Shown: positions 4,180 through 59,535 of the stretch, piece after piece
Layout of the letters: each line of letters opens with the position of its first letter
How positions within the stretch are numbered: position 1 is the stretch's first letter
Source of the DNA: an uncultured Alphaproteobacteria bacterium
GTDB taxonomy: Bacteria > Pseudomonadota > Alphaproteobacteria > CAAHEQ01 > UBA3637
DNA: 64,000 nt
Assembly (NCBI GenBank): GCA_934234055.1
Contig: CAKQGY010000003.1
Coordinates: 21,142 to 85,141, forward strand
Direction of reading: 5' to 3'
Made by a program: the position numbers and the translations under genes
The notes under the pieces: generated by a model
The model's input: only the letters and a program-made list of their open reading frames with translations
The model's database searches: none
Told to the model about the DNA's origin: nothing

Positions 4180-4227
4180 TTTCTAACATATACTTTTTCA
4201 TTTTTCAAGCATTTTTGCCGGAAAAAG

Positions 4228-5379: not shown

Positions 5380-5422
5380 AAGAGGAAGTATATCTAAAAT
5401 CTGCCCATTTTGCAAGCGAATT

Positions 5423-5687
5423 TGTGGATAATGTGGATAAATAGGTCTGTTTTTAAAAAGAGGTCTAAAACAATTAAATTGCACTCAGTCTAAATGCACA
5501 CCGGAAAAATCCCGAAAAATAGACCTGATTCAAAAAATGAACCCAGTTATCCACACGATTCGGGTAAATTTCAAAAACCTGTCAAGCAAAAAATAAAAAA
5601 GATATGCACATTATGCACACCCCCTTCTAATACTAATATATATTTATTATATAAGATAGGCAGGTTGAAAGTGGATAAAATCCACAG
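5423..5687. promoter_or_regulatory. AT-rich intergenic region with a cluster of DnaA boxes (candidate oriC or DnaA-regulated region)
   Basis: TGTGGATAA at 5423-5431 and 5432-5440. TTATCCACA at 5547-5555. AGTGGATAA/ATCCACA pair at 5670-5687. ATGCACA appears three times. Lies next to parS and parAB. Confidence 0.45.
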
Positions 5688-5759
5688 GTTTGTGAAATCT
5701 TGATTGCAAAGATGTAAATTATATGGTATCATAATCATTAAATGTAAAGGAGCATCGTC

Positions 5760-26761: not shown

Positions 26762-27045
26762 GCGAAAAAACAGACCGGTTGCATCAAGATATTCAAGCAA
26801 TGAAACAAAAAACGCGGCAGCCCGCCGGGCTGGGACGTGGGGCGAATGACTATAATGTAGCCTTGACAATTATGACGGATTTGTTGGGGAATATCTTTAT
26901 CGGGTGCGCGATCGGGCTGTGTCTGCAATGGCTGTTTCAGACCAGCGTGCTGTTGACGGCGGGGTTGACCCTGTTGGGCGGTGTGAGCGGGCTGTATACT
27001 ACGGTGCGCTATGGTTTGCGGCAAGAAAGGAAACGGCAGCCATGA
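26758..27045 (+). CDS. atpI: ATP synthase protein I-like (AtpI/AtpZ)
   Basis: Small two-TM protein immediately upstream of atpB. Confidence 0.55.
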   Translation: MSEKTDRLHQDIQAMKQKTRQPAGLGRGANDYNVALTIMTDLLGNIFIGCAIGLCLQWLFQTSVLLTAGLTLLGGVSGLYTTVRYGLRQERKRQP

Positions 27046-27764
27046 ACCCGATGCATCAATTTACGGTTAAAAATTGGGTGCCGCTGACATGGTGGGGGCT
27101 GGATTTTTCGTTCACGAACGCGGCGCTGTTTATGGTGCTGGCGTCGGTGCTGGGGGCACTGATTCTGTGGTGTCTGATGAAACCGCAGCGTCTGATTCCC
27201 ACGACGGGGCAAGCACTGGTGGAAGCCCTGTATCGCTTTATCGTGGCGACGGCGCGCGATACGATCGGCGAGAAGTATAAATCATATATTCCCTTTATTT
27301 TCAGCGTGTTCGTGCTGATTTTTATGGGGAATTTGTTGGGTCTGTTTCCGTATGGATTTACTTTTACCAGCCAACTGGCACCGGTGGGGGCATTTGCCCT
27401 GTTGGGGTTGGTCGTGTCGGCGGGTGTCGGGATTTATCATCAGAAAATCAAATGGTTCCGCACATTTTTGCCCAGTGGGATTCCACTGGTCCTGGCGCCG
27501 ATCGTCGTGCCGATTGAGCTGATTTCGTTTATCGCCAAGCCGTTCAGCCTGACCGTGCGATTGGTGATGAATATGGTGGTGGGGCATATCTTGCTGAAAA
27601 TTTTGGCGGGGTTTGTGTTCACATCGGGATTGGCGGGTGTGTTCCCGCTGGTCTTTGTGGCGTTGATGATCGTGTTTGAGGTGGGAATCTCGTTCCTGCA
27701 AGCCTATATCTATACCATCTTAACCAGTATCTATTTGGGGGAAGCCCTGAACGGACATGAATAA
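27042..27764 (+). CDS. atpB: F0F1 ATP synthase subunit a
   Basis: Conserved Arg in LTVRLVMNMVVGHIL. Start chosen at MNPMHQF. The track ORF begins earlier. Confidence 0.9.
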   Translation: MNPMHQFTVKNWVPLTWWGLDFSFTNAALFMVLASVLGALILWCLMKPQRLIPTTGQALVEALYRFIVATARDTIGEKYKSYIPFIFSVFVLIFMGNLLGLFPYGFTFTSQLAPVGAFALLGLVVSAGVGIYHQKIKWFRTFLPSGIPLVLAPIVVPIELISFIAKPFSLTVRLVMNMVVGHILLKILAGFVFTSGLAGVFPLVFVALMIVFEVGISFLQAYIYTILTSIYLGEALNGHE

Positions 27765-27778
27765 AAAGGAGAAAAATT

Positions 27779-28024
27779 ATGGAAAATGAAACAATGCAAT
27801 ATATCGCCGAAGCAGCTAAATATTTGTCGGTGGGGTTGATCAGCCTGGTGATGCTGGGCGTGGCAAAGGGCGTGTCGCAAATCTGGGTGACGATTATCTC
27901 GTCGGTCAGTCGCAACCCCGGCGTTAAAAATGATGTGAGCCTGTTTGCCTGGGGCGGGGCGGCCATTACCGAAGCGATTGCTCTGTATGCCTTGGGGTTG
28001 GCGATTATTATGCTGTATATGTAG
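27779..28024 (+). CDS. atpE: F0F1 ATP synthase subunit c
   Basis: Hairpin proteolipid with the conserved carboxylate (AITEAIALYALG). Confidence 0.9.
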   Translation: MENETMQYIAEAAKYLSVGLISLVMLGVAKGVSQIWVTIISSVSRNPGVKNDVSLFAWGGAAITEAIALYALGLAIIMLYM

Positions 28025-28031
28025 GCGTGTG

Positions 28032-28475
28032 ATGCCGCAGTTTGAAACCGCTTTTTATATCGGGCAAATCTTTTGGATGCTGATCAGTTTCGGCTTCTTG
28101 TATGTAATGATGACTTTTTTAATCTGCCCGATGATTGAGGAAGTGTTGGACGCCCGCCGGGCACAGGTGGCAGAAAATCTGAACGCGGCGGAAAAGGCGA
28201 ACAGTGCGGCGGAAAGCTTGCACAAACGGTATGAAGCCTTTATGCAAAATGCCGAAACCGAAAAAAATGAGAAAATCCAAACGGCCTATGCCGAAATCGG
28301 CCGGGTGGCACAGCAGGCAGAAAATGCGGAAGATCGGCTTTTGCGGCGAAAAGTGCGCCAAACCGAACATAAAATTGACGGCATTAAAAATAAATTGAAC
28401 GAGCAAACGGATACGCTGTCAGCGGGAATCGCTGCAGAGTTGTGCGCGCGCTTGACGGGAGGCAGTCCGAAATGA
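28032..28475 (+). CDS. atpF: F0F1 ATP synthase subunit b'
   Basis: N-terminal TM then a long coiled coil. Start MPQFETAF. Confidence 0.7.
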   Translation: MPQFETAFYIGQIFWMLISFGFLYVMMTFLICPMIEEVLDARRAQVAENLNAAEKANSAAESLHKRYEAFMQNAETEKNEKIQTAYAEIGRVAQQAENAEDRLLRRKVRQTEHKIDGIKNKLNEQTDTLSAGIAAELCARLTGGSPK

Positions 28476-28981
28476 TCTATCATAGTGCCGAGTTTTGGAG
28501 TAGTGTGGCCTTTGTGATCGTGGTGGCGGTGGCCCTGCGGCCGGTGGGGCGATACCTGAATCGCTGGACCAAACGACAAGATGCGCAAATCACGGCCGAG
28601 TTGGAGCAGGCAAAAAACCTGCGGGCTCAGGCAGAAGAGCTGAAAGACGAGTATCAAAAGGCTTTTCAAAATCGCTGGAAAGAACGTGCCAAATTGATGC
28701 GAGAGGCCGACCGTGAAATTGAAGACCTGCGCGCCGAGACGGAAAGCAAAACGCACGACCGAATTTTGCATAAACGGCAGGAAGTGGCGCTGCGGTTAAA
28801 AGTCATTGAGGAAAATGGTCGGCAAGAGGTTAAAAACCAGATGCTGAGCAAGGTGGTGCGCTGTGCCGGCGAGAGGCTGCGGGCGCAAAGTGAGGCCCCG
28901 GCGTCGGCCGTGGAAACGGATCAGATGGTGGCACAGGCCTTGGCGGCCGTGGACGCGATGGCTCCGATTTTGAAAAAATAA
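28472..28981 (+). CDS. atpF: F0F1 ATP synthase subunit b
   Basis: TM plus coiled coil. ATGA overlap with the preceding gene. Confidence 0.7.
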   Translation: MIYHSAEFWSSVAFVIVVAVALRPVGRYLNRWTKRQDAQITAELEQAKNLRAQAEELKDEYQKAFQNRWKERAKLMREADREIEDLRAETESKTHDRILHKRQEVALRLKVIEENGRQEVKNQMLSKVVRCAGERLRAQSEAPASAVETDQMVAQALAAVDAMAPILKK

Positions 28982-29074
28982 ACGAAAATACGCTTTTTTT
29001 GACGAAAAAAGATTGAAAACAGACGGAAAATTGAGTATACTGCCATCAGAGTTTGAATCAACGAAAAGAAGGTT

Positions 29075-29995
29075 TTGATGGAACAGCTTCCCCATATTCC
29101 CGTCCTGCTGGATGAGGTGATTGAATACCTGAATTGCCGAAAGGCCGGCACCTATATTGACGGCACCTTTGGCGCGGGGGGGTATACGCGCGCGATTTTG
29201 GAAGCTAATTCTCGCAATCGCGTGATCGGATTTGACCGTGACCCGGACGCCATGAAAACAGGCCTGATGTTTGAGGGACTGTATCCGAACCGCTTTTCCT
29301 TTATTCACGATTGTTTCAGCAATATGGCGGCCTATGTGGATGATCCGGTGGACGGGATTGTGTTGGACCTGGGGGTGTCGTCTATGCAGATTGATCAGCC
29401 CGAACGCGGGTTCTCGCTGCGCTTTGACGGGCCGCTGGATATGCGCATGGGACAGCAGGGTAAATCGGCCAAAGACTATGTCAACGGCCTGTCGGAACGG
29501 GACTTGGCGGAAATTATTTTCAAGTTCGGTGAAGAAAAAGCGTCGCGTCGAATTGCGGCTGCGATTGTCCAAGAACGCACACAATCTCCGATTATTACGA
29601 CGGCGCAGCTGGCCGATGTAATCCACAGGGTCATGCCGCGTCCCAAAGACGGATCGGATAGTGCAACACGAACCTTTCAAGCCCTGAGGATTCGAGTCAA
29701 TGACGAGTTGGGCGAATTGCAACGCACCTTGGACGCATCGTCGCGGTTGTTAAAGCCGGCCGGGCGATTGGTGGTGGTGTCATTCCATTCTTTGGAAGAT
29801 CGGTTGGTCAAGAACTTTTTAATTCGTCATTCGGACGCAAAAACACATCAAAATCGCTATGCGCCGGCGGAGGCAGTCAGTGCGGGGCCCTTTACCGTTT
29901 TAACGCGCAAACCCGTGTGTGCGGGCGAGGCGGAGCTGAAACGCAATCCGCGGGCGCACTCGGCCAAACTGCGGGCGGCGCAAAGGACGGCATAG
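29075..29995 (+). CDS. rsmH: 16S rRNA m4C1402 methyltransferase RsmH (MraW)
   Basis: HIPVLLDEV...GTFGAGGYT motifs. Confidence 0.9.
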   Translation: MMEQLPHIPVLLDEVIEYLNCRKAGTYIDGTFGAGGYTRAILEANSRNRVIGFDRDPDAMKTGLMFEGLYPNRFSFIHDCFSNMAAYVDDPVDGIVLDLGVSSMQIDQPERGFSLRFDGPLDMRMGQQGKSAKDYVNGLSERDLAEIIFKFGEEKASRRIAAAIVQERTQSPIITTAQLADVIHRVMPRPKDGSDSATRTFQALRIRVNDELGELQRTLDASSRLLKPAGRLVVVSFHSLEDRLVKNFLIRHSDAKTHQNRYAPAEAVSAGPFTVLTRKPVCAGEAELKRNPRAHSAKLRAAQRTA

Positions 29996-30331
29996 ATGAA
30001 AACTTGGGTTGTTCGAGTGGGCTGTGTGTTGTTGGCACTGGGGGCGGCTTTGCAGTTGTTTTATGTCAAGTATCAGGTGATTGACCAAGAGCATGAGCTG
30101 AAACGCATACACCGGCAAATCGCCGATGATATGCGGGAAATCCATATTTGGGAAGCGGAATGGGCGTTACTGAACAACCCGGATCGCCTGCGCAAATTGG
30201 TGGCAAATTATACGACCTTTCAACCGATCGGGGCCAAGCAAATCGTGCGAATATCCGATCTGCCGATGCGGGCGGCACCGGTGCCGGAATCGCGCCCCGT
30301 GTTTGTTGAAGACGCAGAGGGACAGCCATGA
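29996..30331 (+). CDS. ftsL: Cell division protein FtsL-like
   Basis: Small, single TM plus coiled coil, positioned between rsmH and ftsI. Confidence 0.55.
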   Translation: MKTWVVRVGCVLLALGAALQLFYVKYQVIDQEHELKRIHRQIADDMREIHIWEAEWALLNNPDRLRKLVANYTTFQPIGAKQIVRISDLPMRAAPVPESRPVFVEDAEGQP

Positions 30332-32067
30332 AACGATCCCCGAAAGAGACTTTTTACTATGTGGGGCAGGAAATCCCCTATCACCGGTTGGATCGCTATC
30401 GGTGCTTGGACGCGACAACGCAGGTGGTGCTGCAAAAAGCGCGCGGGCGTATTACCTTGATTATCGGGGCGTTGGCGTTGTGCTTTGCGGTGATTGTAGG
30501 GCGGCTGTTTTACCTGACGATTGTGAACTATCAGGCGCGGAACTTTACGCCGTCGGTCCTGAAAACCGAATATATGACGGGGCGACAAAACATTGTGGAT
30601 CGGCACGGGATTGTGTTGGCGACCAGTATCCCGACGGCGGACTTGTCTGTCAATCCCTCTAAAATTAAAAACCCCCAAGAAGTGGCCGAAAAATTGGCTA
30701 AGGCGATTCCGTCGCTGTCGTATGAGGCGGCCTATCAAAAACTGACGGCGGGGAATAACTTTCAATATATCAAACGCGGCTTAACGCCGGTGGAACGCAA
30801 TGCGGTGAACTGGATCGGGAACCCCTATTTGGAAGAGCGGCAGGGAGAAAAGCGCGTCTATCCGCAGCAAAACCTGTTCTCGCATTTAATCGGCAGTGTG
30901 GATATTGATAATGTCGGAACGGCGGGGCTGGAAAAAGCCTATAACGAAGAACTGAAAACGGATCCGGTGATGCTGTCGCTGGATACATCGGTTCAGGAAA
31001 TGACGCGGCAGGCCCTGATGCAGGGGATTCAAAAATACAAAGCCCGCGCGGGTTTAAGTGTCGTAATGAATGTCAAAAACGGTGAAATTCTGGCGTCGGT
31101 GTCGCTGCCGGATTATAATCCGAATCGGTCAGCGGGGAAAAAAGATGATCGCTTTAATAAAGTCAGCCTGGGCAGTTATGAATTCGGATCGGTGTTCAAG
31201 TTATTCAATACGGCGATGGCGTTGGAAGCCGGCGATATTCGGCCGACGGACTCGTTTGATGCGAAAAACACCCTGAAAATCGGGCGCAAAGTGATTGAGG
31301 ATTTTCGCGGGCAAAATCGAGTGCTGACGGTGCCGGAAATCCTGATACACTCGTCCAACATCGGGTCGGCACGAATCGCCCTGCAATCGGGGTGGCAAAA
31401 ACAACGCGACTTTTTGGGAAAATTGGGCTTTTATCAAAAGCTGCCGATTGTGCTGTCGGAACGGGGATCAACACTGTATCCGACGGGGGCAAAATGGGCG
31501 GATATGACCTCGGCCAGCGTGGCATACGGCTATGGCGTGTCGGTGACGCCCCTGCACCTGATTGCGGCGGTGGCAGCCATTGCAAACGACGGAATCTATC
31601 ATGTGCCGACCTTTATCAAAGACGGCAATAAAGGCAGGCCCGAATATCAGGTTATTTCACGTAAGACCTCGGAACAAATGCGCCATATGATGTGGGCGGT
31701 GATCAATTGGGAAATGAAAGAAAGCAACCCGGTGTATGGCTATGCCGTGGGGGGGAAAACAGGATCGGCGAACCTGCTGTCCGAGGACGGACGGTATATC
31801 CAAGGGTCGCTGCGCACCAGTTTTGTGGGAGTTTTTCCGATGGATGATCCGCAATATGCGGTGCTGGTGACATTGGAGGATCCGAAAAAAATTAAAGAAA
31901 CATGGATGTTTAATAATGCGGGGTGGAATGCCAGGCCGATCGGCCTGAACATCATTGCGGAGATTGCACCGTATTTGGGTGTGATGCCGCGGCCGCGGTG
32001 GGAGCAACCCTCCTATATTGAGCAAGCTATTGAAAAGAGTATTGAATACAAGAAGAGGAAAAAATGA
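30328..32067 (+). CDS. ftsI: Peptidoglycan D,D-transpeptidase FtsI (PBP3)
   Basis: SxxK (SVFK), SSN and KTG motifs. Confidence 0.9.
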   Translation: MKRSPKETFYYVGQEIPYHRLDRYRCLDATTQVVLQKARGRITLIIGALALCFAVIVGRLFYLTIVNYQARNFTPSVLKTEYMTGRQNIVDRHGIVLATSIPTADLSVNPSKIKNPQEVAEKLAKAIPSLSYEAAYQKLTAGNNFQYIKRGLTPVERNAVNWIGNPYLEERQGEKRVYPQQNLFSHLIGSVDIDNVGTAGLEKAYNEELKTDPVMLSLDTSVQEMTRQALMQGIQKYKARAGLSVVMNVKNGEILASVSLPDYNPNRSAGKKDDRFNKVSLGSYEFGSVFKLFNTAMALEAGDIRPTDSFDAKNTLKIGRKVIEDFRGQNRVLTVPEILIHSSNIGSARIALQSGWQKQRDFLGKLGFYQKLPIVLSERGSTLYPTGAKWADMTSASVAYGYGVSVTPLHLIAAVAAIANDGIYHVPTFIKDGNKGRPEYQVISRKTSEQMRHMMWAVINWEMKESNPVYGYAVGGKTGSANLLSEDGRYIQGSLRTSFVGVFPMDDPQYAVLVTLEDPKKIKETWMFNNAGWNARPIGLNIIAEIAPYLGVMPRPRWEQPSYIEQAIEKSIEYKKRKK

Positions 32068-34880
32068 ACAGTTGTGAACTATTGGCCGAAATCGGCGTGA
32101 AAGTGAACGGAGAATTGCCGGAGATAACGGGCTTGGCAATTCATGCGGGGGCTGTGCGATCCGGTGATGCCTTTGCCGCGATGAAGGGAGCCGCACGCGA
32201 CGGGGCGGACTATGTGGCCGAGGCTGTTCAAAACGGTGCGGTGCTGATCCTGGCCGAGCGCGAAATAGTGGCCGATGTGCCCGTGGTGGTGGTGCCGAAC
32301 CTGCGGCGGCAGGTGTCGCGTCTGGCGGCTCGGTTGTATCCGTCGGATCAGGTGATGAAACTGGCCGTGACGGGGACGAACGGAAAAACCTCAACCGTCT
32401 ATTATGTGCAGCAACTGTTAAATCGGCTGGGGATTTCGGCAGCCAGTCTGGGGACAATCGGCGTGGATTCGGCCCGGGGACATATCGAGGGGTATATGAC
32501 AACGCCGGATGCAATTACTTTGAATAAAACGCTGCACGACCTGCAAACACAGGGAATCCGCGTGGTGGCGTTGGAGGCATCCAGCCACGGTTTGGATCAA
32601 GGGCGGTTGGACGGCTTGATGTTCCGGGCGGGGGCTTTTACGAATCTGACGCAAGATCATTTGGATTATCATAAAACCATGGCGGCCTATTTGGATGCGA
32701 AAAGTAAGTTGTTTTCGGACTATGTGGCCGCGGACGGTTTGGCGGTGTTGAACGCCGATGATTCCGCCTTTGCACACTTGGCCGATATGGCGAAAGAGCG
32801 AGGCTTGCGCGTTATATCCTATGGTCGGCAGGGGGCGGATTTTCGCCTGATTTCCCAAACGCCGACAGAGTATGGGCAGTCCGTTGTGTTTGAGGCCGGT
32901 GGCCGGCGGTATGAGACGAACCTGGCGATTGTGGGGGACTTTCAGGTGATGAACCTGTTTGCCGCCATGGGGCTGTGCCTGGGAGCGGGGGTTGCCATAG
33001 AGCAGATCATCCCCCTGTTGCCCGAGTTGCAAGCCCCCAGCGGCCGGATTGAACAAATGGGAACTTTGCCGAACGGGGCGCGGGTCTTTGTGGACTATGC
33101 GCACACGCCGGACGCGGTGGAGCGGGTGTTGATCTCGCTGCGGGCGCATACGAAAGGCAAGTTGGTGTGTGTGATCGGCTGTGGCGGAAATCGCGATACC
33201 GGCAAGCGGCCTTTGATGGGGGCTGCGGCGGATCGGTTGGCGGATCGGGTCTATATCACCGATGATAACCCGCGGTTTGAGAATCCGGCGGCGATTCGGA
33301 CGGCGATCCGAGAGGCCTGTCCGAATGCCGAAGAATACGACAATCGCGAAGAAGCGATCTATCGCGCGGTTAAAAGCTTGGAGCCGCAGGATGTGCTGGT
33401 CATTGCAGGTAAGGGGCACGAAGCCGGGCAAACCATCAACGGGATAACCTATGCCATGGATGATCGGGTGGAAGCACGTTTGGCTATTATGAGCCGAACA
33501 ACCCCTGCGCTGTGGACGGCCGAGGAATTAAAATTGGCTCTGTCGGTCAAAGTGCCCGAACGCATACAAGCGTATGGCGTTTCTATTGACACACGAACAT
33601 TGAAGTTGGGGGATCTGTTCCTGGCGATGAGCGGGGAAAACAGCGACGGACATGCCTTTGTCAAGCGCGCCGTAGAATTGGGCGCGGCGGCGTGCGTGGT
33701 GACTCATTTGGTGGCCGAAGTGCCGGCGGAAAAGCAAATTGTGGTGGCCGATGTGATGAATGCGCTGGAATCCTTGGCGCGGTTTTCGCGTATGCGCAGT
33801 TCCGCTACCTTTATCGGGATTACGGGCTCGTCCGGCAAGACAACTACCAAAGAAATGTTAAAGGCGATTCTGTCTGCCCAAGGGCAAACGCAGGCGACAC
33901 AAGGCAACCTGAACAACCAGATCGGAGTGCCGCTGACCCTGGCGCGGGTGGGAGCCGGGACACGCTATGCCGTGATTGAAATGGGTATGAACCACAGTGG
34001 TGAGCTGTATCACCTGTCGGATATGGTGCGACCGGATATAACGATTATCACCTCTATCGGGTTGGCGCATCGCGCGTTTTTCAAGACCGAAGCCGATGTG
34101 GCCAAGGCCAAATCAGAAATCTTTGAGTTCCAAAATCGGCAAGGGGTGGCCGTCCTGAATAAAGCAGATGATTTTTACGACTTTTTAAAGCAGGCCGCCG
34201 CGGCGCAAGGTATCGCACGGCAGGTCTCGTTCGGGGCGGATAAAACCGCCGATGTGGCGTTGGTGTCGGCGGTATCGACCGGCGATAAAACAACGGTGGA
34301 TTTTATGACACAAGGCCGGACGTATCAAATGACCTTGGGCTTTGTCGGAACACACTATGTATCGGACGCCCTGGGGGCGTTGGCCGTGGTGTTGGCCGCA
34401 GGGGGCGATTTGGAGCAGGCGATCAAAACGCTGGAAACCCAAAGCCCGGCGGCAGGACGTGGGGCGGTGTCAAGCGTGATTTTCGCGGGGCATCATATCA
34501 CCCTGATAGATGATGCCTATAATGCTAATCCGTCGTCTATGGCGGCGTCGGTGCGGGCCCTGGGTCTGAGGCGCGGGGGGCGGAAAATCGCGGTGCTGGG
34601 CGATATGTTGGAGTTGGGCGATTTGGGCCCGAAACTGCACGCCGATATGGCACCGGTGTTGAACAAAGCCGGCGTGGATCGGGTTTATTTGGCGGGCGAG
34701 CTGATGACGCATTTGTGGGCCGATGTGCCGGCGGATAAACAAGGTGCGCATACCCGAACCCCCGAAGAATTGTTGCCGATTTTGGCGCGCGACCTGCAAG
34801 ACGGGGATTTTGTGTTGGTCAAGGCTTCGCACGGGGCGGGGCTGTATCGGTTGATTCAAATGATGAAAGGAAATAAATAA
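32064..34880 (+). CDS. murE-murF: Fused MurE (UDP-MurNAc-tripeptide synthetase) and MurF (D-Ala-D-Ala adding enzyme), 938 aa
   Basis: Two Mur ligase ATP sites ([22 protein letters not shown]). MurE ends ...AGKGHEAGQ and MurF begins at about aa 480 with no stop between them. Confidence 0.85.
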
Positions 34881-35962
34881 TGCTGTATTGGTTGCATATG
34901 CTGAAAAATGTGGTCAGTCCTTTGAATGTGTTTCAATATCTGACTTTTCGGACGGGCGGGGCGCTGATCACGGCGTTTTTGATTGTCCTGATAGCCGGGC
35001 CGCGGTTTATCCGGTGGCTGAAATCCAAGCAGGGTGAGGGGCAACCGATTCGCACCGACGGGCCGCAAACGCACCTGTCCAAAAAAGGCACGCCGACAAT
35101 GGGCGGGTTGCTGATCGTGATAGCGGGCGTGATTGCGACGTTGCTGTGGGCGAATCCGGCCAATCCCTATGTGTGGGTGGTGCTGACGGTGTTTGTCGGT
35201 TTTGGCGCGATCGGGTTTGGGGATGACTATCTGAAACTGACGCGGCACAATACAGCCGGCATTTCGGGACGCAAACGCCTGATGATGGAGTTCGGGCTGG
35301 CTTTTGTGGCGTGTGTGGCGGTGATTTGTTTGGAGGACGGTATGATGGCGACAACCCTGACAATTCCGTTTTTCAAGAATATTTTGATGGATATCGGGTG
35401 GTTCTATATCCCGTTTGTGCTGGTGGTGATTGTCGGGACGGCCAATGCCGTGAACCTGACGGACGGGCTGGACGGCCTGGTCAGCGTGCCGGTGATTATG
35501 GCGCTGTTGGTGTTTGCGGTAATTGCCTATTTATCGGGGAATGTGCAGTTTGCCGAATACCTTAAAATCTATTATGTCGGGCAGGCCGCAGAATTGACGG
35601 TGCTGGGCGGGGCGCTGATCGGAGCGACATTGGGCTTTTTGTGGTATAATGCTCACCCGGCTCAGGTGTTTATGGGGGATACCGGATCACTGGCGCTGGG
35701 GGGCGCGCTGGGGGTGTTGGCCGTCGCAACCAAGCACGAGATTGTCTTGGCAATTGCGGGTGGCATTTTTGTGGCCGAGGCTCTGTCGGATATTATTCAG
35801 GTGGGCTCGTATAAACTGCGGGGTAAACGCGTGTTTTTAATGGCGCCGATTCATCACCACTTTGAGAAAAAAGGTTGGTCCGAAACGACGGTCGTCGTTC
35901 GGTTCTGGATTGTGTCTATTTTATTGGCGCTGGCGGCGTTGGCCACATTGAAGTTGAGGTAA
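34880..35962 (+). CDS. mraY: Phospho-N-acetylmuramoyl-pentapeptide transferase
   Basis: 10-TM MraY with the [12 protein letters not shown] motif. Confidence 0.9.
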
Positions 35963-35964
35963 AA

Positions 35965-37089
35965 ATGAAGCACTATATCGGACAGAAACTCTATCAAATC
36001 AAGACGCAATTTCGCGGGCTGGACAAGGGAATTTTGAACAGTATTTTTATCTTGATTTTGTTCGGAATCTGTCTGACATTGGCGGCCAGTCCCGCCGTGG
36101 CCGAGCGCAACCGCTATGGCACATTTCATTTTATCTACCGGCAATTTTTGTTCCTGGGGCCGGCGGTGGGCACGATGCTGGGCGTTGCGCTGCTGTCGGT
36201 TAAACAAATCCGACGGGTGGCGTTGGTGTTGCTGGTGGTCAGCTTGATTCTGATGGTGTATGTGCTGTTGTTCGGTTATGAAATTAAAGGGGCCAAACGG
36301 TGGATGAATTTCGGGCCAATCGGCCTGCAACCGTCCGAGTTCGTTAAACCGGCTTTTGCCGTGGTGTGCGCGTGGTTGTTGGCGTCGGGCAAGTTGATTA
36401 AAAAATTCCCGGGCTATTGGTTGGCGATCGGCCTGTATGGGATTGTGGCGTTGTTGTTGTTCCGGCAGCCCGATATCGGTATGTTGCTGACGGTGTCGGC
36501 AATCTTTGCGGTGCAGTTGTTCCTGTCCGGGATTCCGTGGGCGTTGGTGCTGGGGGCCGGGGGATTTTTTGCCGCACTGGTGCCGCTGGCGTATTTTAAT
36601 TTAGAGCATGTGCGCCTGCGGATTGATCGGTTTTTAAGCCCCGAGGTGGAAAAAGGCTATCAGGTGGAAAAGTCGCTGGAAACCTTGCATAACGCAGGGT
36701 GGTTCGGCAAAGGCCCGGGCGAAGGCGTGGTCAAATTTCAATTGCCCGATGCGCATACAGACTTTATTTTGGCGGTTTCGGCCGAGGAGTTCGGGTTTGT
36801 CCTGACGGCGTTGTTGGTAGGCGTATTTGCCTTTTTGGTTTTGCGCGGGTTTTGGATGATTCGCAAAGAAAATAATTATTTTTGCCAAATTGCCGTTGCG
36901 GGCTTATTGACTCAGATTGCTTTTCAGGTTATTGTAAATATGGGTTCAACTTTGAATCTCTTGCCGACCAAAGGTATGACACTGCCGTTCATCTCGTATG
37001 GCGGGTCGTCATTGGTGTCGGTGGGGATTGCTTTCGGGTTTATCCTGGGGCTGATTCACAGTCGGACATTGAGCAGAGGATTGGAATAA
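35965..37089 (+). CDS. ftsW: Lipid II flippase / peptidoglycan glycosyltransferase FtsW
   Basis: SEDS family. Start MKHYIGQ is 2 nt after the mraY stop, so there is no room for murD. Confidence 0.85.
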   Translation: MKHYIGQKLYQIKTQFRGLDKGILNSIFILILFGICLTLAASPAVAERNRYGTFHFIYRQFLFLGPAVGTMLGVALLSVKQIRRVALVLLVVSLILMVYVLLFGYEIKGAKRWMNFGPIGLQPSEFVKPAFAVVCAWLLASGKLIKKFPGYWLAIGLYGIVALLLFRQPDIGMLLTVSAIFAVQLFLSGIPWALVLGAGGFFAALVPLAYFNLEHVRLRIDRFLSPEVEKGYQVEKSLETLHNAGWFGKGPGEGVVKFQLPDAHTDFILAVSAEEFGFVLTALLVGVFAFLVLRGFWMIRKENNYFCQIAVAGLLTQIAFQVIVNMGSTLNLLPTKGMTLPFISYGGSSLVSVGIAFGFILGLIHSRTLSRGLE

Positions 37090-37090
37090 A

Positions 37091-38197
37091 ATGACAAAAA
37101 CAAAACAACAAGCACCTTTAATCGTGGTTAGTACCGGCGGTAGCGGCGGGCATATCTTTCCGGCCGAAGCAATCGCCGGCGCTTTGATTAAACAAGGCGC
37201 ACGGGTGGCGTTCCTGACCGATAAGCGCGGGCAGGCTTTTCAAGGATTAAAAGGCGTGGCGGTTTATCGCTTGGCGGCCGAGTCTGTGACGGGGCGGTCG
37301 GTGCTTGGGAAAATTCGGGCGTTGTTCAAACTGTGGCTTGGCACGGTGCAGGCGCTTTTCCTGATGTATCGCCTGAAACCCGCGGCGGTGGTGGGTGTGG
37401 GCGGTTATGCCTCGATCCCGGCGGTGATGGCGGGGCATGTGGCGCATATCCCTGTGATTTTGCACGAGCAAAATGCCGTTCTGGGGCGTGCGAATCGCTT
37501 GCTGGCGCGGGGGGCACGGTTTATCGGCACCTCGTTTCAACCGACACTGCTGATTCCGGCCGATATTCTACAGATTCAAGTGGGCCTGCCGGCACGACCG
37601 GCGGTGCTGGCGTTGCAGGACAGCCCTTTCCCAAAGATGAAAGATACCTTTCATTTACTGATATTCGGGGGCAGTCAGGGAGCACGATTCTTTACGAACA
37701 AATTGCCCGAGGCGTTGTTGGCGTTGCCGGCGGAACTGCGTGCCAAAATTGACCTGGTGCAACAGGTGCGACCCGAAGATATGGACCATGCGCGGGAAGT
37801 CTATGCCGGGGCGGGGTTCAAAAAAATCACCCTGAAATCCTTTTTTAATGATATGCCCGAGCAATTGAAAAAAGCACATTTGGTGATCGGGCGTGGCGGG
37901 GCCGGGACATTGACCGAGCTGATGATTATCGGGCGACCGGCAATCATTATCCCCTTGCCGACAGCGGCGGATAACCACCAAGCGGAAAATGCGCGCCTGT
38001 TCTGTGATAAAGGGGCCGGTTGGTTGATGCTGGAAAGCGACTATCAGACCAATAGAATGCGCGATCGACTGATGAAACTGATGACAAAACCGGAGCTGCT
38101 GGCTGATGCGGCACGGCGTTCGGCACAGGGGGGCGATCCGGCGGCTGCGGATAAAATGGCCGGCGCGATTTTGGATATTGTGAAGGGAGCCAAATAA
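37091..38197 (+). CDS. murG: UDP-GlcNAc:lipid I GlcNAc transferase MurG
   Basis: GGSGGHIFPA and GT28 motifs. Confidence 0.9.
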   Translation: MTKTKQQAPLIVVSTGGSGGHIFPAEAIAGALIKQGARVAFLTDKRGQAFQGLKGVAVYRLAAESVTGRSVLGKIRALFKLWLGTVQALFLMYRLKPAAVVGVGGYASIPAVMAGHVAHIPVILHEQNAVLGRANRLLARGARFIGTSFQPTLLIPADILQIQVGLPARPAVLALQDSPFPKMKDTFHLLIFGGSQGARFFTNKLPEALLALPAELRAKIDLVQQVRPEDMDHAREVYAGAGFKKITLKSFFNDMPEQLKKAHLVIGRGGAGTLTELMIIGRPAIIIPLPTAADNHQAENARLFCDKGAGWLMLESDYQTNRMRDRLMKLMTKPELLADAARRSAQGGDPAAADKMAGAILDIVKGAK

Positions 38198-39600
38198 TGC
38201 GAAAAATACTTCCCCTTAAAAAAATTCACTTTATCGGCATTGGCGGAATCGGTATGAGCGCGATTGCCGAAATGCTGCATGATATGGGCTTTGCAGTGCA
38301 AGGATCTAATGATGTGGAAAACGGCAATACCGAGCGTGTGCGCGGGCAGGGAATCCCCGTCTTTATCGGGCACGATTCCAATAATTTAAGCGGCGTGGAC
38401 GCGGTGGTGATCTCGTCTGCCATACATTCCGACAATCCCGAGTTGGCCGAAGCTCGCCGGCGGGGAATCCCGGTGGGGCATCGCTCGGAAATGCTGGCCG
38501 AGATATTAAAATTTAAGCAAAGTGTGTGTGTGTCGGGCACGCATGGTAAAACGACGACGTCCTCTTTGATTGCCAGCCTGCTGGTGACGGCGGGGAAAAA
38601 ACCCAGCTTTGTGATCGGCGGAATCTTGAACAACCAAAAGTCTAATGCTCAGCTGGGGTCTGGCAACTGGGTCGTGGTGGAGGCCGACGAGTCGGACGGG
38701 TCGTTCCTGCGCCTGCCAACGACGATTTCGGTCATCACGAACATAGATCCCGAGCATTTGGATTTTTATAAAACCTTTGACCATATGAAGCGGGCGTATG
38801 CGGCCTTTATCCGGCAGACGGCGTTTTACGGCTGCACGGTGGCCTGCACGGATCATCCGGTAGTGCGCGAAGTGCTGGCCGATGTGTCGGGTCGTAAGAT
38901 CATCACCTATGGCCTGAACAAGCAAGCCGATATTCATCCCGATCATATTCGGCCGACCGAGACCGGCTTTGTGATGGATATCTTTATTCGTCGCGGATGC
39001 AAGTTCAAAAAACTGAAAGATGTGGCACTGTCGCTGATGGGCCTGCATAATGTGGCCAATGCTATGGCGATGGTGGGTGTGGCCGAACAAATGGGTATTA
39101 CGGAGAAAGCTATTCGCAAGACTCTGGCGGGGTTCAAGGGGATTCAACGCCGCCTGACCAAGCGCGGTATCATTGATGCGAATGTGCCGGTCTATGACGA
39201 TTATGCCCACCATCCGGTTGAAATTAAAGCGACTTTAAGTGCGTTGCGACCAGCTACAAAAAAACGCGTGATTGCCATTTTTCAACCGCATAGATATACC
39301 AGATTGCGCGATTTATGGGATGACTTTTTGACGGCGTTTGACGATGCGGATCAAGTTCTGGTGTGCGATGTTTATCCGGCGGGCGAACCGGCGTTAGAGG
39401 GCATCACGGCTCAGCGATTTGCAGCGGCTTTGTCCGAAAAGCACGCGAATGTCGGCTATATCCCCTCGTTTGAGGCGTTAACCGAACGCATTCAAAAAGA
39501 AGCACGGCCGGGTGATACGATTGTATGCCTGGGGGCGGGCAGTATTTCAGCGCAGGCCAAAGAATTGATTAAAAAACTAAAAGGAAAAACAATATGTTAG
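38197..39600 (+). CDS. murC: UDP-N-acetylmuramate-L-alanine ligase
   Basis: GTHGKTTTSS ATP site. Confidence 0.9.
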   Translation: MRKILPLKKIHFIGIGGIGMSAIAEMLHDMGFAVQGSNDVENGNTERVRGQGIPVFIGHDSNNLSGVDAVVISSAIHSDNPELAEARRRGIPVGHRSEMLAEILKFKQSVCVSGTHGKTTTSSLIASLLVTAGKKPSFVIGGILNNQKSNAQLGSGNWVVVEADESDGSFLRLPTTISVITNIDPEHLDFYKTFDHMKRAYAAFIRQTAFYGCTVACTDHPVVREVLADVSGRKIITYGLNKQADIHPDHIRPTETGFVMDIFIRRGCKFKKLKDVALSLMGLHNVANAMAMVGVAEQMGITEKAIRKTLAGFKGIQRRLTKRGIIDANVPVYDDYAHHPVEIKATLSALRPATKKRVIAIFQPHRYTRLRDLWDDFLTAFDDADQVLVCDVYPAGEPALEGITAQRFAAALSEKHANVGYIPSFEALTERIQKEARPGDTIVCLGAGSISAQAKELIKKLKGKTIC

Positions 39601-39653
39601 GTTGGTTTCGGAAATTATTTTATCACAGCCCTCTGCTGGACAAAATACCGCCG

Positions 39654-40526
39654 ATGCGGGGGTTGGTGGAAGAGGGTAGAATGCTGGCCAAGAAAACTTG
39701 GCTCGGTGTGGGAGGACCGGCCGAGGTCTATATAGAACCGACCGATGTGGCAGACCTGATGCACCTGATGAAAACATTGCCGGACGAGCCGTTTACGGTG
39801 TTAGGGGCGGGCAGCAATGTTTTAATTCGCGACGGTGGGATTCCGGGCATAACTCTGCACCTGGGGCGCAGTTTTTCCGAAATTAAAGTAGAGGGAAATT
39901 GCCTGCGGTGCGGGGCGGGAGCCTCGGTGATGGAAGTGGCGCGTGTGGCTGAGAAAAACGGCTTGACGGGGTTTGAGTTCCTGTCGGGGATACCGGGATC
40001 GGTGGGCGGCGCGGTGCGTATGAATGCGGGGGCTTTCAGACAATCACTCAGCGATAGAATGACCCTGCTGGTTGCGATGACGGGCAACGGTGATATTTCC
40101 GAAATCAACCCGCGTGAGATGAATATCTTTGAATATCGGCAGTGCTATTTGCCGCTGGATTGGATTTTCCTGGAAGTGGTATTGGAAGGCGAAAAGGCCC
40201 GGGATCCGCAAACAATCCGCGACAAGATGCTGGAATACAAGAAAAAACGCGAAGCGGCACAACCGCAAGGGGTGCGCACGGCAGGGTCTACTTTCAAAAA
40301 TCCGGATGGCCTGATGGCGTGGCGATTGATTGATAAGGCCGGTCTGCGCGGGGCTCGGGTCGGGCATGCTGTCGTATCGGATAAGCATGCGAACTTTTTG
40401 ATCAACGAGGGGGGCGCGTCGGCCGAGGATATAGAAGAACTGGGCGAAAAAATCCGGGCTCGGGTGAAAAAAGAACACGGTGTGGCTTTGGAATGGGAAG
40501 TTAAACGATTGGGAGTGCGCAAATGA
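39654..40526 (+). CDS. murB: UDP-N-acetylenolpyruvoylglucosamine reductase
   Basis: FAD-binding WLGVGGPAEV. Start inferred at MRGLVEE. The track ORF begins earlier, overlapping murC. Confidence 0.85.
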   Translation: MRGLVEEGRMLAKKTWLGVGGPAEVYIEPTDVADLMHLMKTLPDEPFTVLGAGSNVLIRDGGIPGITLHLGRSFSEIKVEGNCLRCGAGASVMEVARVAEKNGLTGFEFLSGIPGSVGGAVRMNAGAFRQSLSDRMTLLVAMTGNGDISEINPREMNIFEYRQCYLPLDWIFLEVVLEGEKARDPQTIRDKMLEYKKKREAAQPQGVRTAGSTFKNPDGLMAWRLIDKAGLRGARVGHAVVSDKHANFLINEGGASAEDIEELGEKIRARVKKEHGVALEWEVKRLGVRK

Positions 40527-41446
40527 AGAAAGTAGCGGTTTTAATGGGCGGGTGTTCGTCTGAACGTGATATTTCACTGCAAAGCGGAGAGGGAGTGGCC
40601 GAGGCTTTGGTCGGGTTGGGATACAGCGTCAGCCGACTGGATTGGTCGGGCGACGGAGCCGAGTTGGTGGAAATGTTGACGGCCGAGCGGCCCGATGTGG
40701 TGTTTAATGCACTGCACGGTCGGTTTGGCGAAGACGGCTGTGTGCAGGGGCTTTTGAATATGATGCGGATACCCTATACGCACTCGGGCGTGGCGGCGTC
40801 GGCTATCGGTATGGATAAAGACCTGACCCGACAACTGGCTGAGAATGCCGACATTGATGTGGCGGCGGGGCGGTTGATGATGCGAGAAGACTTTTTGTCG
40901 GGCGGTGAACCGATTATGCCCTATGTAATTAAGCCAAATGCAGACGGATCGTCTGTGGGGGTGTTTATTGTGCGGGACGAGGCCGATCGGGAGCGGGCTT
41001 TGGCGGCCTGGCCCGCGGGTGAAGTTCGCCTGTTGGAAGACTATATCGCAGGACGAGAATTGTCGGTGGCGGTGCTGGACGGCTGTGCGATCGGTGTGGT
41101 GGAGATTATCCCGAAATCGGGTTATTATGACTTTACGAACAAATATCAGGAAGGTGGTGCGCGCCATGTGATACCGGCTGAAATCGGGTCTGAAATGACG
41201 GCTTTGGCCAAGGACTGGGCCGAGCAAATGCATACGATGATAGGCTGTCGCGGTGTGTCGCGGTGTGATTTCCGGCTGAACGATCGGACGAACCCCGAAA
41301 ATCCACGCTTGGTGCTGCTGGAAATCAACACAAATCCCGGTATGACGCGCCTGTCTCTGGTGCCGGAATTGGCCCGCATTTGTCGGCAGATGAGCTATGC
41401 CGAATTGGTGAGGCACTTGGTGGAGGAGGCAACATGCGACAACTGA
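40523..41446 (+). CDS. ddl: D-alanine-D-alanine ligase
   Basis: ATP-grasp. MKKVAVLMGG start. Confidence 0.9.
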   Translation: MKKVAVLMGGCSSERDISLQSGEGVAEALVGLGYSVSRLDWSGDGAELVEMLTAERPDVVFNALHGRFGEDGCVQGLLNMMRIPYTHSGVAASAIGMDKDLTRQLAENADIDVAAGRLMMREDFLSGGEPIMPYVIKPNADGSSVGVFIVRDEADRERALAAWPAGEVRLLEDYIAGRELSVAVLDGCAIGVVEIIPKSGYYDFTNKYQEGGARHVIPAEIGSEMTALAKDWAEQMHTMIGCRGVSRCDFRLNDRTNPENPRLVLLEINTNPGMTRLSLVPELARICRQMSYAELVRHLVEEATCDN

Positions 41447-42207
41447 AAAAAGCCAAATGGCGTCGAGCAAAATGGGGACTGACGGCAACTCTAATCGTTC
41501 TGGTCGGATGCGTCGGAGTCAGTCTGACCCCGACAGGTCGATCTTTTTGGAAGTCTTTGTCGGAAATGGCCGATACAATGACGGACAAAGCCGCTCTGAG
41601 ACTGGGGCAAGCAACAGTGTCGGGATATGCGCGCACAAATAAACAGGATATTGTCAAGAAAATCAACCTTTCGCAAGGAATGCCGATTTTTGATATTGAC
41701 TTGGATCGGGTGCGGGAACAGGTGCTGGAACTGCCGTGGGTGAAAACCGCAGTGGTAAAACGGCAGCTGCCGGCAACACTGTTGATAGAAATCACCGAAA
41801 AAGAGCCGATTGCTCTGTGGCAGAATAACAAAAAATACTGGCCCTTGGATACCGACGGACAACCGATTCGCGATGATAAAACGGTGCTGACAAACCTGAT
41901 TTTGGTGGTGGGACAGGACGCGCCAAAACATACGCCGGCATTGATGAAAACACTGGAATCCTATCCGGAACTGCGCGAAAAAGTGCGCTCGGCTGTGCGG
42001 GTAGGTAATCGGCGCTGGAATCTGATTCTGAACGATGCCGAGGAGGGGCTGGTGATTAAACTGCCCGAAGAGGAACCGGACACGGCATTGAGGCGCTTGA
42101 TGCGGGCAGACGATACGGATAAACTCTTGAAACGTGATCTGAAAAGCATTGATTTGCGCTTGGATGATCGGATTATTGTGCGCGAGAAAGGAAAATCCAA
42201 AAAATGA
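41434..42207 (+). CDS. ftsQ: Cell division protein FtsQ
   Basis: Single TM plus POTRA. Start MRQLKKAKW preceded by GGAGGAGG. Confidence 0.75.
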   Translation: MRQLKKAKWRRAKWGLTATLIVLVGCVGVSLTPTGRSFWKSLSEMADTMTDKAALRLGQATVSGYARTNKQDIVKKINLSQGMPIFDIDLDRVREQVLELPWVKTAVVKRQLPATLLIEITEKEPIALWQNNKKYWPLDTDGQPIRDDKTVLTNLILVVGQDAPKHTPALMKTLESYPELREKVRSAVRVGNRRWNLILNDAEEGLVIKLPEEEPDTALRRLMRADDTDKLLKRDLKSIDLRLDDRIIVREKGKSKK

Positions 42208-43460
42208 GTTGGTGGGCTTATCGGCAAAACAGAAAATCATACATAACAGTGCTGGATATCGGATCGTCCAAAGTGTGTGGCCTGATGGCGCATATTCCCT
42301 CAAACGGTCGACCCGAGGTAATCGGTGTCGGGTTTGCGGCAGCCAAAGGGATTAAATCCGGCATGGTGGTGGATCTGAACGAAGCGACCGAATGTATCGG
42401 GCATGTGCTGGGACAAATTGAAAAGCAGGCCGAGCGACCCGTTAAATCTGTGACAGTAAATATCTCGTCCAATCAACTTAAATCCCGTCACTTGGCCAAG
42501 GAAATCACGTTGGACGACAGCCATCCGATCACGGCCGGCGATGTCAAGCAGTTGGTGGACGATATGATTCAAACCATTGTTCCGCCCGAGGAAGAAGTCT
42601 TGCACCCCTTTGCGATGGGTTATTCGGTGGACGGTGAGGCCGGCATTGCCGACCCGCGGGGCCTGTATGCGCGGACATTAAAGGCGTATGTGCATGTGGT
42701 TACAATTCCCGAAACGCAGCTGCGGAACCTGTTGATGGTTCTGGATCGGTGCCATGTAGAGCTGGATCGCAAAGTTGCAACGCCCTATGCGGCGGCACTG
42801 GCGACTCTGACGGATGAGGAAAAAGAGGTCGGAGCCACGGTGCTGGACCTGGGGGCGGGCACAACGGGTTATGCATTGTTTGCGCGGGGGTATTTGGTGC
42901 ACTTGGGTGTTGTGCCGATCGGAGGAGCCTTGATGACACGCGACATTGCGCAGGTGTTGAGCACCTCGTTGGCCACGGCCGAGCGGTTGAAAACCCTGAA
43001 CGGTGCGGCGTTTTTATCGCCCAAAGACGAGCTGGATCGCCTGATCGTGCCGATGATCGGTGAGGAATCCGAAACAAATTCGCAAATCCCCAAAGCCGAG
43101 CTGATTAAAATCATCGTGCCGCGGTTGGAGTCTATTTTGGAACAAATCGGACAAAAGTTGGCCGCAAACGAATTGTTCTTGGCCTCGGCTCGGCGGTTGG
43201 TGTTGTGCGGCGGCGGCAGTGCTTTGCAGGGAATCAAGGAAAAAGCCGAGGCTCTGTTGGAGGCAAATGTGCGTTTAAGTAAGGCACCATACATAAAAAA
43301 CTTGCCAAATCAATTTGATTCGTATACATTTGTGGTATGTGCCGGATTGTTAAAATATGTTCTGTCGCAACAGGCTGCCGCGCGGCCGGTGGAACAGTTT
43401 GACGAACAGGCGCTTGGGAAAAGTCGTTTTAGAAAGGTCTTGACATGGTTAGTGAAATAG
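42204..43460 (+). CDS. ftsA: Cell division protein FtsA
   Basis: Actin-like ATPase motifs ([15 protein letters not shown]). Confidence 0.9.
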
Positions 43461-44953
43461 CAAATAATGAACTGGATATCGGGCTGGCAACGCCGGCACC
43501 GGAGGTGCTGTTGACCCCGAACATCGGCGTGTTTGGCGTCGGGGGTGCTGGGGGCAACGCGATCAATAATATGATTCGGTCCAAGTTGGGTGGTGTGTCG
43601 TTCTTTGCCGCCAATACCGATGCCCAGGCTTTGTCGCGATCCTTGGTGGCGGACAAGATTCAGCTGGGTGTGGCATTGACCAAAGGATTGGGGGCGGGGG
43701 CTAATCCCGAAATCGGCAAGGCCGCCGCCGAAGAATCGGCTGACAAGATTAAAGAAGCCCTGACGGGGTTGCACTTGCTGTTTTTAACGGCGGGTATGGG
43801 GGGCGGCACCGGCACGGGGGCGGCGCCTGTGGTGGCACGCCTTGCAAAGGAAATGAATATCCTGACCGTCGGGGTGGTGTCCAAACCGTTTAATTTTGAG
43901 GGGTCGCGCCGGATGAAAACGGCCGAGCAGGGGATTATTGAACTGCAAAAATATGTGGATACGCTGGTTGTGATACCGAACCAAAATCTGTATCGGATTG
44001 CGGGTGAGGGTATGACCTTTTTAGAGGGCTTCAAAATCGCGGATAATGTGTTGTGCCAAGGCGTGCGCAGTATTACGGATTTAATCTTGAAGCCCGGAAT
44101 TATCAATTTGGACTTTGCCGATGTGCGCACGGTGCTGTCCACAATGGGACGCTCTATGATGGGCACCGGTGAGGCCAATGGTGAAAACCGTGCGTTGGCG
44201 GCTGCCGAGCAGGCCATTACCAATCCGCTGTTGGATAACACCAGTATCAAGGGGGCCAAGAGCCTGCTTTTGAACATTTCCAGCGGTTCGGATATGACGA
44301 TGAATGAGTTTGATATTGCCGCTGAGCGCATTCGGGCCGAAGTGGATCCGGACGCGAACATTATTGTCGGCGCCAGTGTTGATGAAGATTTAAGCGGCAA
44401 AATCCGGGTGTCTTTGGTGGCGACGGGAATTGACGATATGGTCAACAATATCCCCGAGGCTGTGAACAAGCCCGTCGTGCCTGAGCCCGCTCCTGTCAAT
44501 GTGACCCCGCCCGAGATCGCACCGATTGTCACACCGACTCCTGCGCCCGAACCGGCGGCGGCCGAGCCTGACCTGATGCCGATTCAGCCCACGGTTGCGC
44601 AAACACCCGAACTGATTTTAACCGAGACGGTAGAGCCTCTTGCGGCCACTTTGGTGGTGGATTTACCGACGCCGCCACCCGCGCCCGAACCGGCCCTGTT
44701 TACCGAGCAGCAGCCGATTATGGCCGACATTACGCCGATTACCGATATGCCCGAGGAACGCGCCGAAATCAAAGTGGATACGCCGCAAAATACCGCGAAT
44801 GTCAAGCCGCAAAACAGTGGGCTGTTTGGTCGCTTTTGGGGCAAGAAACGGCCGGTGGTGCGCCCCGCGCAACCCAAAGAAGATGAGCCTTTGTTGGATG
44901 TGTTCGGCAATGATATGTCGCTTCCTTCCTTTTTTAAGGAACCGCGCAAGTAA
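43445..44953 (+). CDS. ftsZ: Cell division GTPase FtsZ with a long Pro-rich C-terminal linker
   Basis: GGGTGTG tubulin signature. C-terminal conserved peptide [14 protein letters not shown]. Confidence 0.9.
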
Positions 44954-46671: not shown

Positions 46672-47352
46672 TTACCTCCCCGGCATACTGCGCAGCGCCA
46701 AATCGCGCAAAGCATTTTCCGAAAAACCGGCCACAACACTGCGGTCTTGCTTGTTCTTACCACCCGATCCCGTCAGCAGCCCCAACGGAATATACACTTT
46801 ACCCGTCGGGACGGGGACATACAATTGCGCCGGGGTCAGAGCGCCCTCGGGGCCCAAAATCTGTTTGTTCAGATACAGATGTATCAGCTCGTGAAACGGG
46901 CGAGCCTGAATAAACACCAGGTTTTCAAAATCAACCTTACCGCCGTAATCCAGCGGATACTTCAAATGCACGGTAAAGTTCTCGGGGATTTGGCCGTGCT
47001 TCATATAGAACAGACCCTCTTCCGTAACGCCGGCCGCGCGCAGGTCATTCGCGTGGTGATAGGATAAAAAGCGCGTAAAATCGCGAATCGTGCGGTTCAG
47101 GAACTTTTGCCGGGCGACAAAATCGGCGGCTTCGTCCGGATAATAGGGCACAACCATCAGGTCCATACCCGGAAAGTTCATCTCGTTAAACAGGGACTCC
47201 CAATGGGATTGATCTTGTTCGGCCAACTCCAAACCGTCCATAAAGTGGTCGTCCATCACCGGGGCTTGCAGCAACCTGTCCCAATCGGCAAAAATATCCG
47301 TTGCGTTCAACGACGCGGACAGAGACATTTGTTGGGTGTCATTTTCAGCCAT
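46672..47352 (-). CDS. Hypothetical protein with an HExxH motif (candidate metallopeptidase-type toxin or effector)
   Basis: ARPFHELIHLY. No other recognisable family. Lies between the T4CP and the SUKH-like gene with 3- and 12-bp gaps. Confidence 0.35.
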   Translation of the reverse strand: MAENDTQQMSLSASLNATDIFADWDRLLQAPVMDDHFMDGLELAEQDQSHWESLFNEMNFPGMDLMVVPYYPDEAADFVARQKFLNRTIRDFTRFLSYHHANDLRAAGVTEEGLFYMKHGQIPENFTVHLKYPLDYGGKVDFENLVFIQARPFHELIHLYLNKQILGPEGALTPAQLYVPVPTGKVYIPLGLLTGSGGKNKQDRSVVAGFSENALRDLALRSMPGR

Positions 47353-59424: not shown

Positions 59425-59535
59425 ATTATTATTCCTTTCTAAAATAGGGGTATTATACCTCTTTTTTTATCTTTTTCAATAAAAAAGTTGTTTTTTGGTT
59501 TTTTTTACTTTATCTTATAGATGAAAGGAGGGGGT

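Follow-up and report, generated by a model that had tools for sequence, protein, structure and literature searches.

The 64,000-nucleotide stretch of contig CAKQGY010000003.1 analysed here (the window, from the assembly GCA_934234055.1 of an uncultured alphaproteobacterium) carries a dcw cluster, with genes for cell division and the cell wall, in which murE and murF are fused into one open reading frame (ORF) of 938 amino acids and from which murD and mraZ are missing. This fusion and this layout are real and lineage-wide. Most likely, it is an ordinary working dcw operon from an uncultured lineage of Alphaproteobacteria associated with the gut, with a fused murEF, without murD and mraZ and with the D-glutamate (D-Glu) ligase encoded at another locus.

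The fused gene within a compact dcw cluster

The cluster has been placed on the plus strand at 29078-44953 and reads rsmH-ftsL-ftsI-[murE-murF]-mraY-ftsW-murG-murC-murB-ddl-ftsQ-ftsA-ftsZ, the six-frame ORF list, Pfam, NCBIfam and the public gene calls being in full agreement. Coordinates are positions within the window, and gene bounds are those of public gene calls on the identical contig. The same gene list, order and coordinates had been proposed in an earlier note made from the sequence alone, and they are borne out by these three kinds of annotation (Pfam, NCBIfam and public gene calls). The genes are as follows.

29078-29995, plus strand: rsmH (mraW), first gene of the cluster; PF01795, E = 1.8e-97; TIGR00006, 313 bits (cut-off 154)
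29996-30331, plus strand: ftsL; NF049847 (FtsL_COG5462), 76 bits (cut-off 50); without Pfam match
30328-32067, plus strand: ftsI (PBP3); PBP_dimer and Transpeptidase domains
32064-34880, plus strand: murE-murF; single ORF of 938 amino acids with two full Mur_ligase, Mur_ligase_M and Mur_ligase_C sets
32064-33494, plus strand: MurE half of the fusion, residues 1-477; NF001124, 671 bits (cut-off 476); TIGR01085, 541 bits (cut-off 257)
33495-34880, plus strand: MurF half of the fusion, residues 478-938; TIGR01143, 511 bits (cut-off 289)
34880-35962, plus strand: mraY; TIGR00445, 418 bits
35965-37089, plus strand: ftsW; PF01098; TIGR02614, 316 bits, slightly below the cut-off of 337.5, yet FtsW is the top-scoring model
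37091-38197, plus strand: murG; N-terminal and C-terminal Glyco_transf_28 domains
38197-39600, plus strand: murC; TIGR01082, 496 bits (cut-off 335); TIGR01087 (murD), 101 bits (cut-off 212)
39594-40526, plus strand: murB; Pfam
40523-41446, plus strand: ddl; Pfam
41434-42207, plus strand: ftsQ; Pfam and public gene calls
42204-43460, plus strand: ftsA; Pfam and public gene calls
43445-44953, plus strand: ftsZ; Pfam and public gene calls

An alternative TTG start of rsmH is present at 29075, and rsmB starts directly after ftsZ, at 44954. All the junctions within the cluster are overlaps or gaps of at most 2 nucleotides, and this tight packing of 13 genes suggests translational coupling. Compared with the canonical proteobacterial dcw cluster (mraZ-rsmH-ftsL-ftsI-murE-murF-mraY-murD-ftsW-murG-murC-murB-ddl-ftsQ-ftsA-ftsZ), the one described here lacks mraZ and murD, has murE and murF fused and has junctions of 2 nucleotides or less; the other 13 genes keep the same order and orientation, so that the collinear order from rsmH to ftsZ is conserved.

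The translational fusion is genuine. The ORF runs continuously through the murE/murF junction, whose DNA contains neither a stop codon nor a frameshift nor a linker, and family models assign the N-terminal half to MurE and the C-terminal half to MurF. The P-loop of the MurE half is TGTNGKTS (residues 103-110), followed by a DNPR motif at residues 401-404, and that of the MurF half is TGSSGKTT (residues 587-594). Both P-loops and the DNPR motif are invariant in an alignment of 80 relatives, in accordance with the earlier claim that the two ATP sites are intact in a single ORF. The DNPR motif of MurE goes with specificity for meso-diaminopimelate (meso-DAP). The fused protein also retains the N-terminal "cap" segment of MurF, and about 26 residues separate the end of MurE from the GVSIDTR motif. 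Both halves would be expected to have their respective MurE and MurF activities. The alignment of 80 sequences also served to build an AlphaFold2 model, whose mean predicted local distance difference test (pLDDT) score is 92.7 and whose predicted template modelling (pTM) score is 0.82; block-mean pLDDT values of 88-96 over residues 461-500 indicate that there is no disordered linker between the halves. Superposed separately on solved structures, the modelled halves give template modelling (TM) scores of 0.85-0.91 for MurE and 0.83-0.88 for MurF.

The fused ORF has been found in 24 near-identical sequences (a 90% cluster) that come from assemblies of four sources (NCBI, ENA, Logan and JGI); the identical protein is encoded on a 213-kb ENA scaffold, and one of the 24 members lies on a 416-kb NCBI contig. 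A database search also returned full-length fused relatives (about 930-950 amino acids) in at least 120 protein clusters with 50-68% identity. Six further sub-lineages were picked by clustering of the alignment, and about 23 kb was read around each murEF. The neighbourhoods inspected were these.

P0015 (L088/L089): 64% identity; NCBI GCA_017539265.1
P0051 (L090): 53% identity
P0110 (L091): 50% identity
P0083 (L092): 51% identity; JGI
P0117 (L173/L174)
P0039 (L175)

In all six, the order is rsmH-ftsL-ftsI-murEF-mraY-ftsW-murG-murC-murB-ddl-ftsQ-ftsA-ftsZ without mraZ, and mraY and ftsW are separated by 2-5 nucleotides. The genes upstream of the cluster vary: atp genes are found there only in the species of the window, while in other sub-lineages the neighbour is ndk, a block with PemK, or gyrB. 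Since the order is fixed in all the sub-lineages while their upstream neighbours differ, the layout is ancestral to the clade. A fusion or a missing murD produced by faulty assembly or annotation of this contig, the doubt that accompanied the earlier note, is hardly credible: the same ORF and junctions occur in independent NCBI, ENA, Logan and JGI assemblies, and both the fusion and the short mraY-ftsW junction recur in seven sub-lineages (the one of the window included) that span 100% down to 50% identity. Nothing was found in favour of the artefact explanation, which is effectively refuted.

Some local differences were observed among these loci. In one sub-lineage an extra ORF of 98 amino acids without family match lies between ftsW and murG (L173, 15063-15359; L174, 9297-9593). 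Another example is a three-gene block, made up of a PemK toxin, a 73-amino-acid ORF and a protein of about 507 amino acids with a faint MamY_C match, which is present both in the flank of the window (L002, 5368-7399, about 3.5-5.5 kb upstream of the window start) and in the 64%-identical relative (L088, 3094-5134). This block is about 34 kb from dcw in the species of the window and about 2 kb 5' of rsmH, with one gene between, in the relative, and its shifted position indicates rearrangement around an otherwise fixed operon.

Origin of the fusion and comparison with known chimeras

In split alphaproteobacterial loci, murE has its stop codon, murF is in a different frame and the N-terminus of MurF begins with M..LW..E...A. 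All the members of the clade keep an LW..EL..AL segment in frame after the C-terminus of MurE. Met 478 of the window protein is not conserved in the relatives, which rules out that MurF is made separately from a conserved start inside the ORF. In a neighbour-joining tree of 151 MurE and MurF sequences, the clade is monophyletic and nested among mostly split alphaproteobacterial sequences, its nearest neighbours being split. Judged from the tree and the junction sequences, murE and murF were fused independently within the Alphaproteobacteria, and the fusion is of the type that has no linker and keeps the cap. In the ancestor of the clade, a small change would have eliminated the stop codon of murE and brought murF into its reading frame, so that full-length MurE and full-length MurF were joined without a linker. 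This single polypeptide would add meso-DAP and then D-alanyl-D-alanine to the UDP-N-acetylmuramic acid peptide, with the two activities at a fixed 1:1 stoichiometry.

Of the Mur chimeras, MurE-MurF occurs most often, and such proteins are common and active (PMC10214165). A crystal structure exists for the chimera of Bordetella pertussis (PDB 8F5D; Shirakawa et al. 2023), an enzyme whose MurE and MurF parts each show activity (PMC10214165). It likewise has a complete MurE on the N-terminal side and a complete MurF behind it in one polypeptide, without a long linker, encoded before mraY in dcw, and 8F5D is the best PDB match to the window protein (E = 2.6e-125; Foldseek E = 5.6e-63). The two proteins share about 35% identity and differ in the cap, which is kept here and absent there. 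In the Bordetella-type chimera, which has no N-terminal MurF cap, the hydrophobic patch is covered by the C-terminus of MurE instead (PMC10214165). In the betaproteobacterial chimeras (Castellaniella, Burkholderiaceae loci and 8F5D) the C-terminus of MurE runs almost straight into (S/V)STDTR, with about 3 residues from the end of MurE to the motif in 8F5D and Castellaniella, as against the roughly 26 counted in the window protein. Another difference lies in the operon, since that of B. pertussis retains murD after mraY (PMC10214165) and the one in the window does not. Other alphaproteobacterial chimeras, for example those of Micropepsaceae and Rhizobiaceae metagenome-assembled genomes (MAGs; loci L008-L010), are cap-retaining and derived from adjacent murE and murF, as here; these MAG loci keep murD and mraZ, and they are not the closest to this clade in the tree. 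The alphaproteobacterial chimeras of Stappia and Pseudovibrio contain linkers of 200-300 residues (PMC10214165), whereas there is none in this fusion.

The missing murD and the D-Glu-adding step

The absence of murD between mraY and ftsW, also claimed in the earlier note, has been confirmed. The mraY stop codon TAA occupies 35960-35962 and the ATG of ftsW is at 35965, so that the 2 nucleotides between them leave no space for murD or a remnant of it. A MurD profile (built from 35 MurDs of the comparison loci) matched only MurE-MurF and MurC in the window, in its 10-kb flanks and in every relative's locus; the window with 10 kb on either side (L002, L005) amounts to about 84 kb of this genome. 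Searches with phmmer of the six frames of the window using MurC and MurE-MurF gave no additional Mur ligase, and no window protein reaches the cut-off of TIGR01087 (212 bits), the top scores being 174 bits for MurE-MurF and 101 bits for MurC. The Mur-type P-loops of the window are exactly three: GTNGKTS at 32373 (MurE), GSSGKTT at 33825 (MurF) and GTHGKTT at 38536 (MurC). That MurC is actually a MurD, or a bifunctional enzyme, is ruled out by its family scores, which exceed the cut-off for TIGR01082 (496/335) and fall below it for TIGR01087 (101/212).

The same holds for mraZ, whose absence had been deduced from the atp operon directly preceding rsmH. Genes of the F0 ATP synthase, at 27042-28981, fill the usual mraZ position directly upstream of rsmH, and a MraZ profile (71 sequences) gave no match below E = 7 in the window or below E = 2 in the flanks, and none in the relatives' loci; the same profile matches in 96 loci of the comparison set.

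The comparison loci were obtained from scans with the alignment of the fused protein (genome contigs) and with the single protein (metagenome contigs); among the matches listed they are distant only (at most 49% identity), and the scans also matched generic motifs such as GKTTTKEM and DYAHTPDA. Among the matches listed in these genome and metagenome contig scans, there is no murD of this clade. In the loci scored for both mraY and ftsW, murD is present in 94 of 110, and when the six loci of the clade are removed about 9 of 104 comparison loci, or some 8%, have murD neither in the slot nor anywhere within 10 kb of it. An empty murD slot is thus uncommon, not unique. Examples include a Geminicoccaceae MAG (L035), two further MAGs of Alphaproteobacteria and one of Myxococcales (L059); in these two named loci and in L045, L054, L122 and L139, mraY is followed directly by ftsW and there is no MurD within 10 kb, as in the window, but murE and murF are split and mraZ is mostly kept. 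In L122/L124 and L134, from unrelated lineages or metagenome contigs, mraY was also seen directly before ftsW, and MurD was not found within 10 kb. As for mraZ, it lies upstream of rsmH in 77 of the 91 assessable comparison loci. Within the comparison sample, only this clade has the fusion together with the lack of both murD and mraZ. Many taxa lack particular dcw genes (PMC8871954), and nothing specific on murD-less dcw clusters or on the genomics of the RF32/CAG-239 group was found in the literature. Because the class of chimera has already been described and murD-less dcw clusters occur in other lineages, the finding is less unusual than first rated.

The physiological question raised by this cluster is how the second residue of the stem peptide is added. 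The other pathway steps (MurB, MurC, MurE, MurF, Ddl, MraY and MurG) are all present and conserved, so a ligase adding D-Glu, or L-glutamate (L-Glu), must exist elsewhere; on this pathway logic, murD, or a MurD2/MurL pair, is likely to be encoded elsewhere in the genome. In the explanation that we favour, the same lineage that carries the fusion has neither murD nor mraZ in the cluster, and the D-Glu-adding MurD step would be supplied by another locus. Several observations weigh against it. No murD of the lineage has been found in the approximately 84 kb read here nor in the approximately 23 kb from each of the six relatives. In addition, the window protein does not reach the cut-off of the curated bifunctional equivalog NF008896 (PRK11929), with 879 bits against 1023; this is a mainly betaproteobacterial equivalog, whose architecture the window protein shares while staying outside it. 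The whole-chain fit of the AlphaFold2 model to 8F5D is also poor (TM 0.39 and 0.47, root-mean-square deviation 15.9 Å), and the arrangement of the MurE and MurF halves may differ from that of the only solved chimera; Mur ligase domains are mobile, and the modelled placement of one domain relative to another is uncertain. This poor superposition fits a different docking of the halves, without proving it.

The same lack of murD could be read in other ways. A MurD2/MurL route encoded away from dcw, as in Xanthomonas and some Alphaproteobacteria, would account for a cluster with no canonical murD; in this route L-Glu is attached by MurD2 and then converted to D-Glu by the ATP-dependent epimerase MurL. 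The dcw cluster of Xanthomonas is likewise not known to contain murD. The adjacent genes XOO_1320 and XOO_1319 of Xanthomonas oryzae code for MurD2 and MurL, and the pair has also been reported in the alphaproteobacteria Devosia, Pelagibacterium and Parvularcula (PMC8788868, PMC5808125). However, no MurD-like ORF of any kind appears in the sequence read, and the ORFs of the window without assigned function have no relevant NCBIfam match, either to a MurL-like protein or to another candidate. This route is an unlikely one here. Much more doubtful is the proposal that there is no MurD-type enzyme at all, its place being taken, for example, by a MurC or MurE domain of broadened activity or by a non-homologous ligase, or the peptidoglycan stem being atypical. 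The sole support for this proposal is the lack of murD in the roughly 84 kb read here and in the six relatives' loci, and the sequence covered is below about 10% of a genome; besides, MurC and the MurE half pass their own family models and fall short of the MurD model, and the same murD-less slot occurs in unrelated bacteria, in some cases on contigs of more than 400 kb. Taken for the clade as a whole, there is a small chance that canonical MurD is lacking and that the second residue of the stem peptide is added by a pair of the MurD2/MurL type, so far not reported for this group, or, much less likely, by a new kind of enzyme. As the evidence stands, the cluster is an ordinary functional cell-wall operon showing known kinds of variation.

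Genomic context and significance

The region directly upstream of the cluster contains the following features.

27042-27764, plus strand: atpB; Pfam ATP-synt_A
27779-28024, plus strand: atpE; Pfam ATP-synt_C
28032-28475, plus strand: atpF'; Pfam ATP-synt_B
28472-28981, plus strand: atpF; Pfam ATP-synt_B
28982-29077, plus strand: A/T-rich spacer of 96 nucleotides between atpF and rsmH

In this spacer, a sigma-70-like sequence, TTGAAA-17-TATACT, is found at 29013-29041, with 10 of 12 positions matching by consensus only. It is a candidate promoter, and the dcw genes would probably be transcribed from a promoter in this spacer, 3' of atpF. Another sigma-70-like sequence, TTGACA-17-AATAAT (11 of 12, likewise a consensus match only), is located at 43440-43468, across the last part of ftsA and the initial codons of ftsZ, and is reminiscent of the internal ftsZ promoters of E. 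coli.

Other observations concern the rest of the window. The genes parB, parA and rsmG (gidB), at 1878-4201 on the minus strand and at about 5000-6000, lie beside a change of sign in the GC skew (strand asymmetry of G and C), which is negative before about 6 kb and strongly positive over 6-46 kb. This region is probably the replication origin region, and the dcw operon is about 25-40 kb from this putative origin and oriented along replication. Directly after rsmB, the segment 46672-50667 (minus strand) contains a VirD4/TraG-type coupling protein of type IV secretion (47365-49548), flanked by ORFs without family match at 46672-47352 and 49558-50667, and this block is possibly what remains of a conjugative element. 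A 637-amino-acid protein encoded at 15097-17010 belongs to no Pfam family and has only a weak match to the Cys-rich repeat TIGR04201. At 59521-60159, flavin reductase, RUBY_RBDX and rubredoxin domains are combined in one protein, which fits an anaerobic or microaerophilic gut lifestyle. Genes identical to those of the window are present in a Hadza human-gut metagenome. The flanking atp operon, which has F0 genes only, and the sources of the related proteins, MAGs named "Alphaproteobacteria bacterium", point to an alphaproteobacterium, which may belong to the GTDB order RF32.

Should the clade indeed have no canonical MurD, the lost murD slot would be the visible trace of a changed route, and if murD is truly absent from these genomes, an alternative step of D-Glu incorporation would be indicated. 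The combination of a fused murEF, no murD, no mraZ and junctions of a few nucleotides or less provides a synteny marker for the clade. More generally, these loci point to an independent, clade-wide origin of a MurE-MurF chimera in an uncultured gut lineage, and this cap-retaining chimera is a natural contrast to the cap-less Bordetella structure for how MurE and MurF dock.

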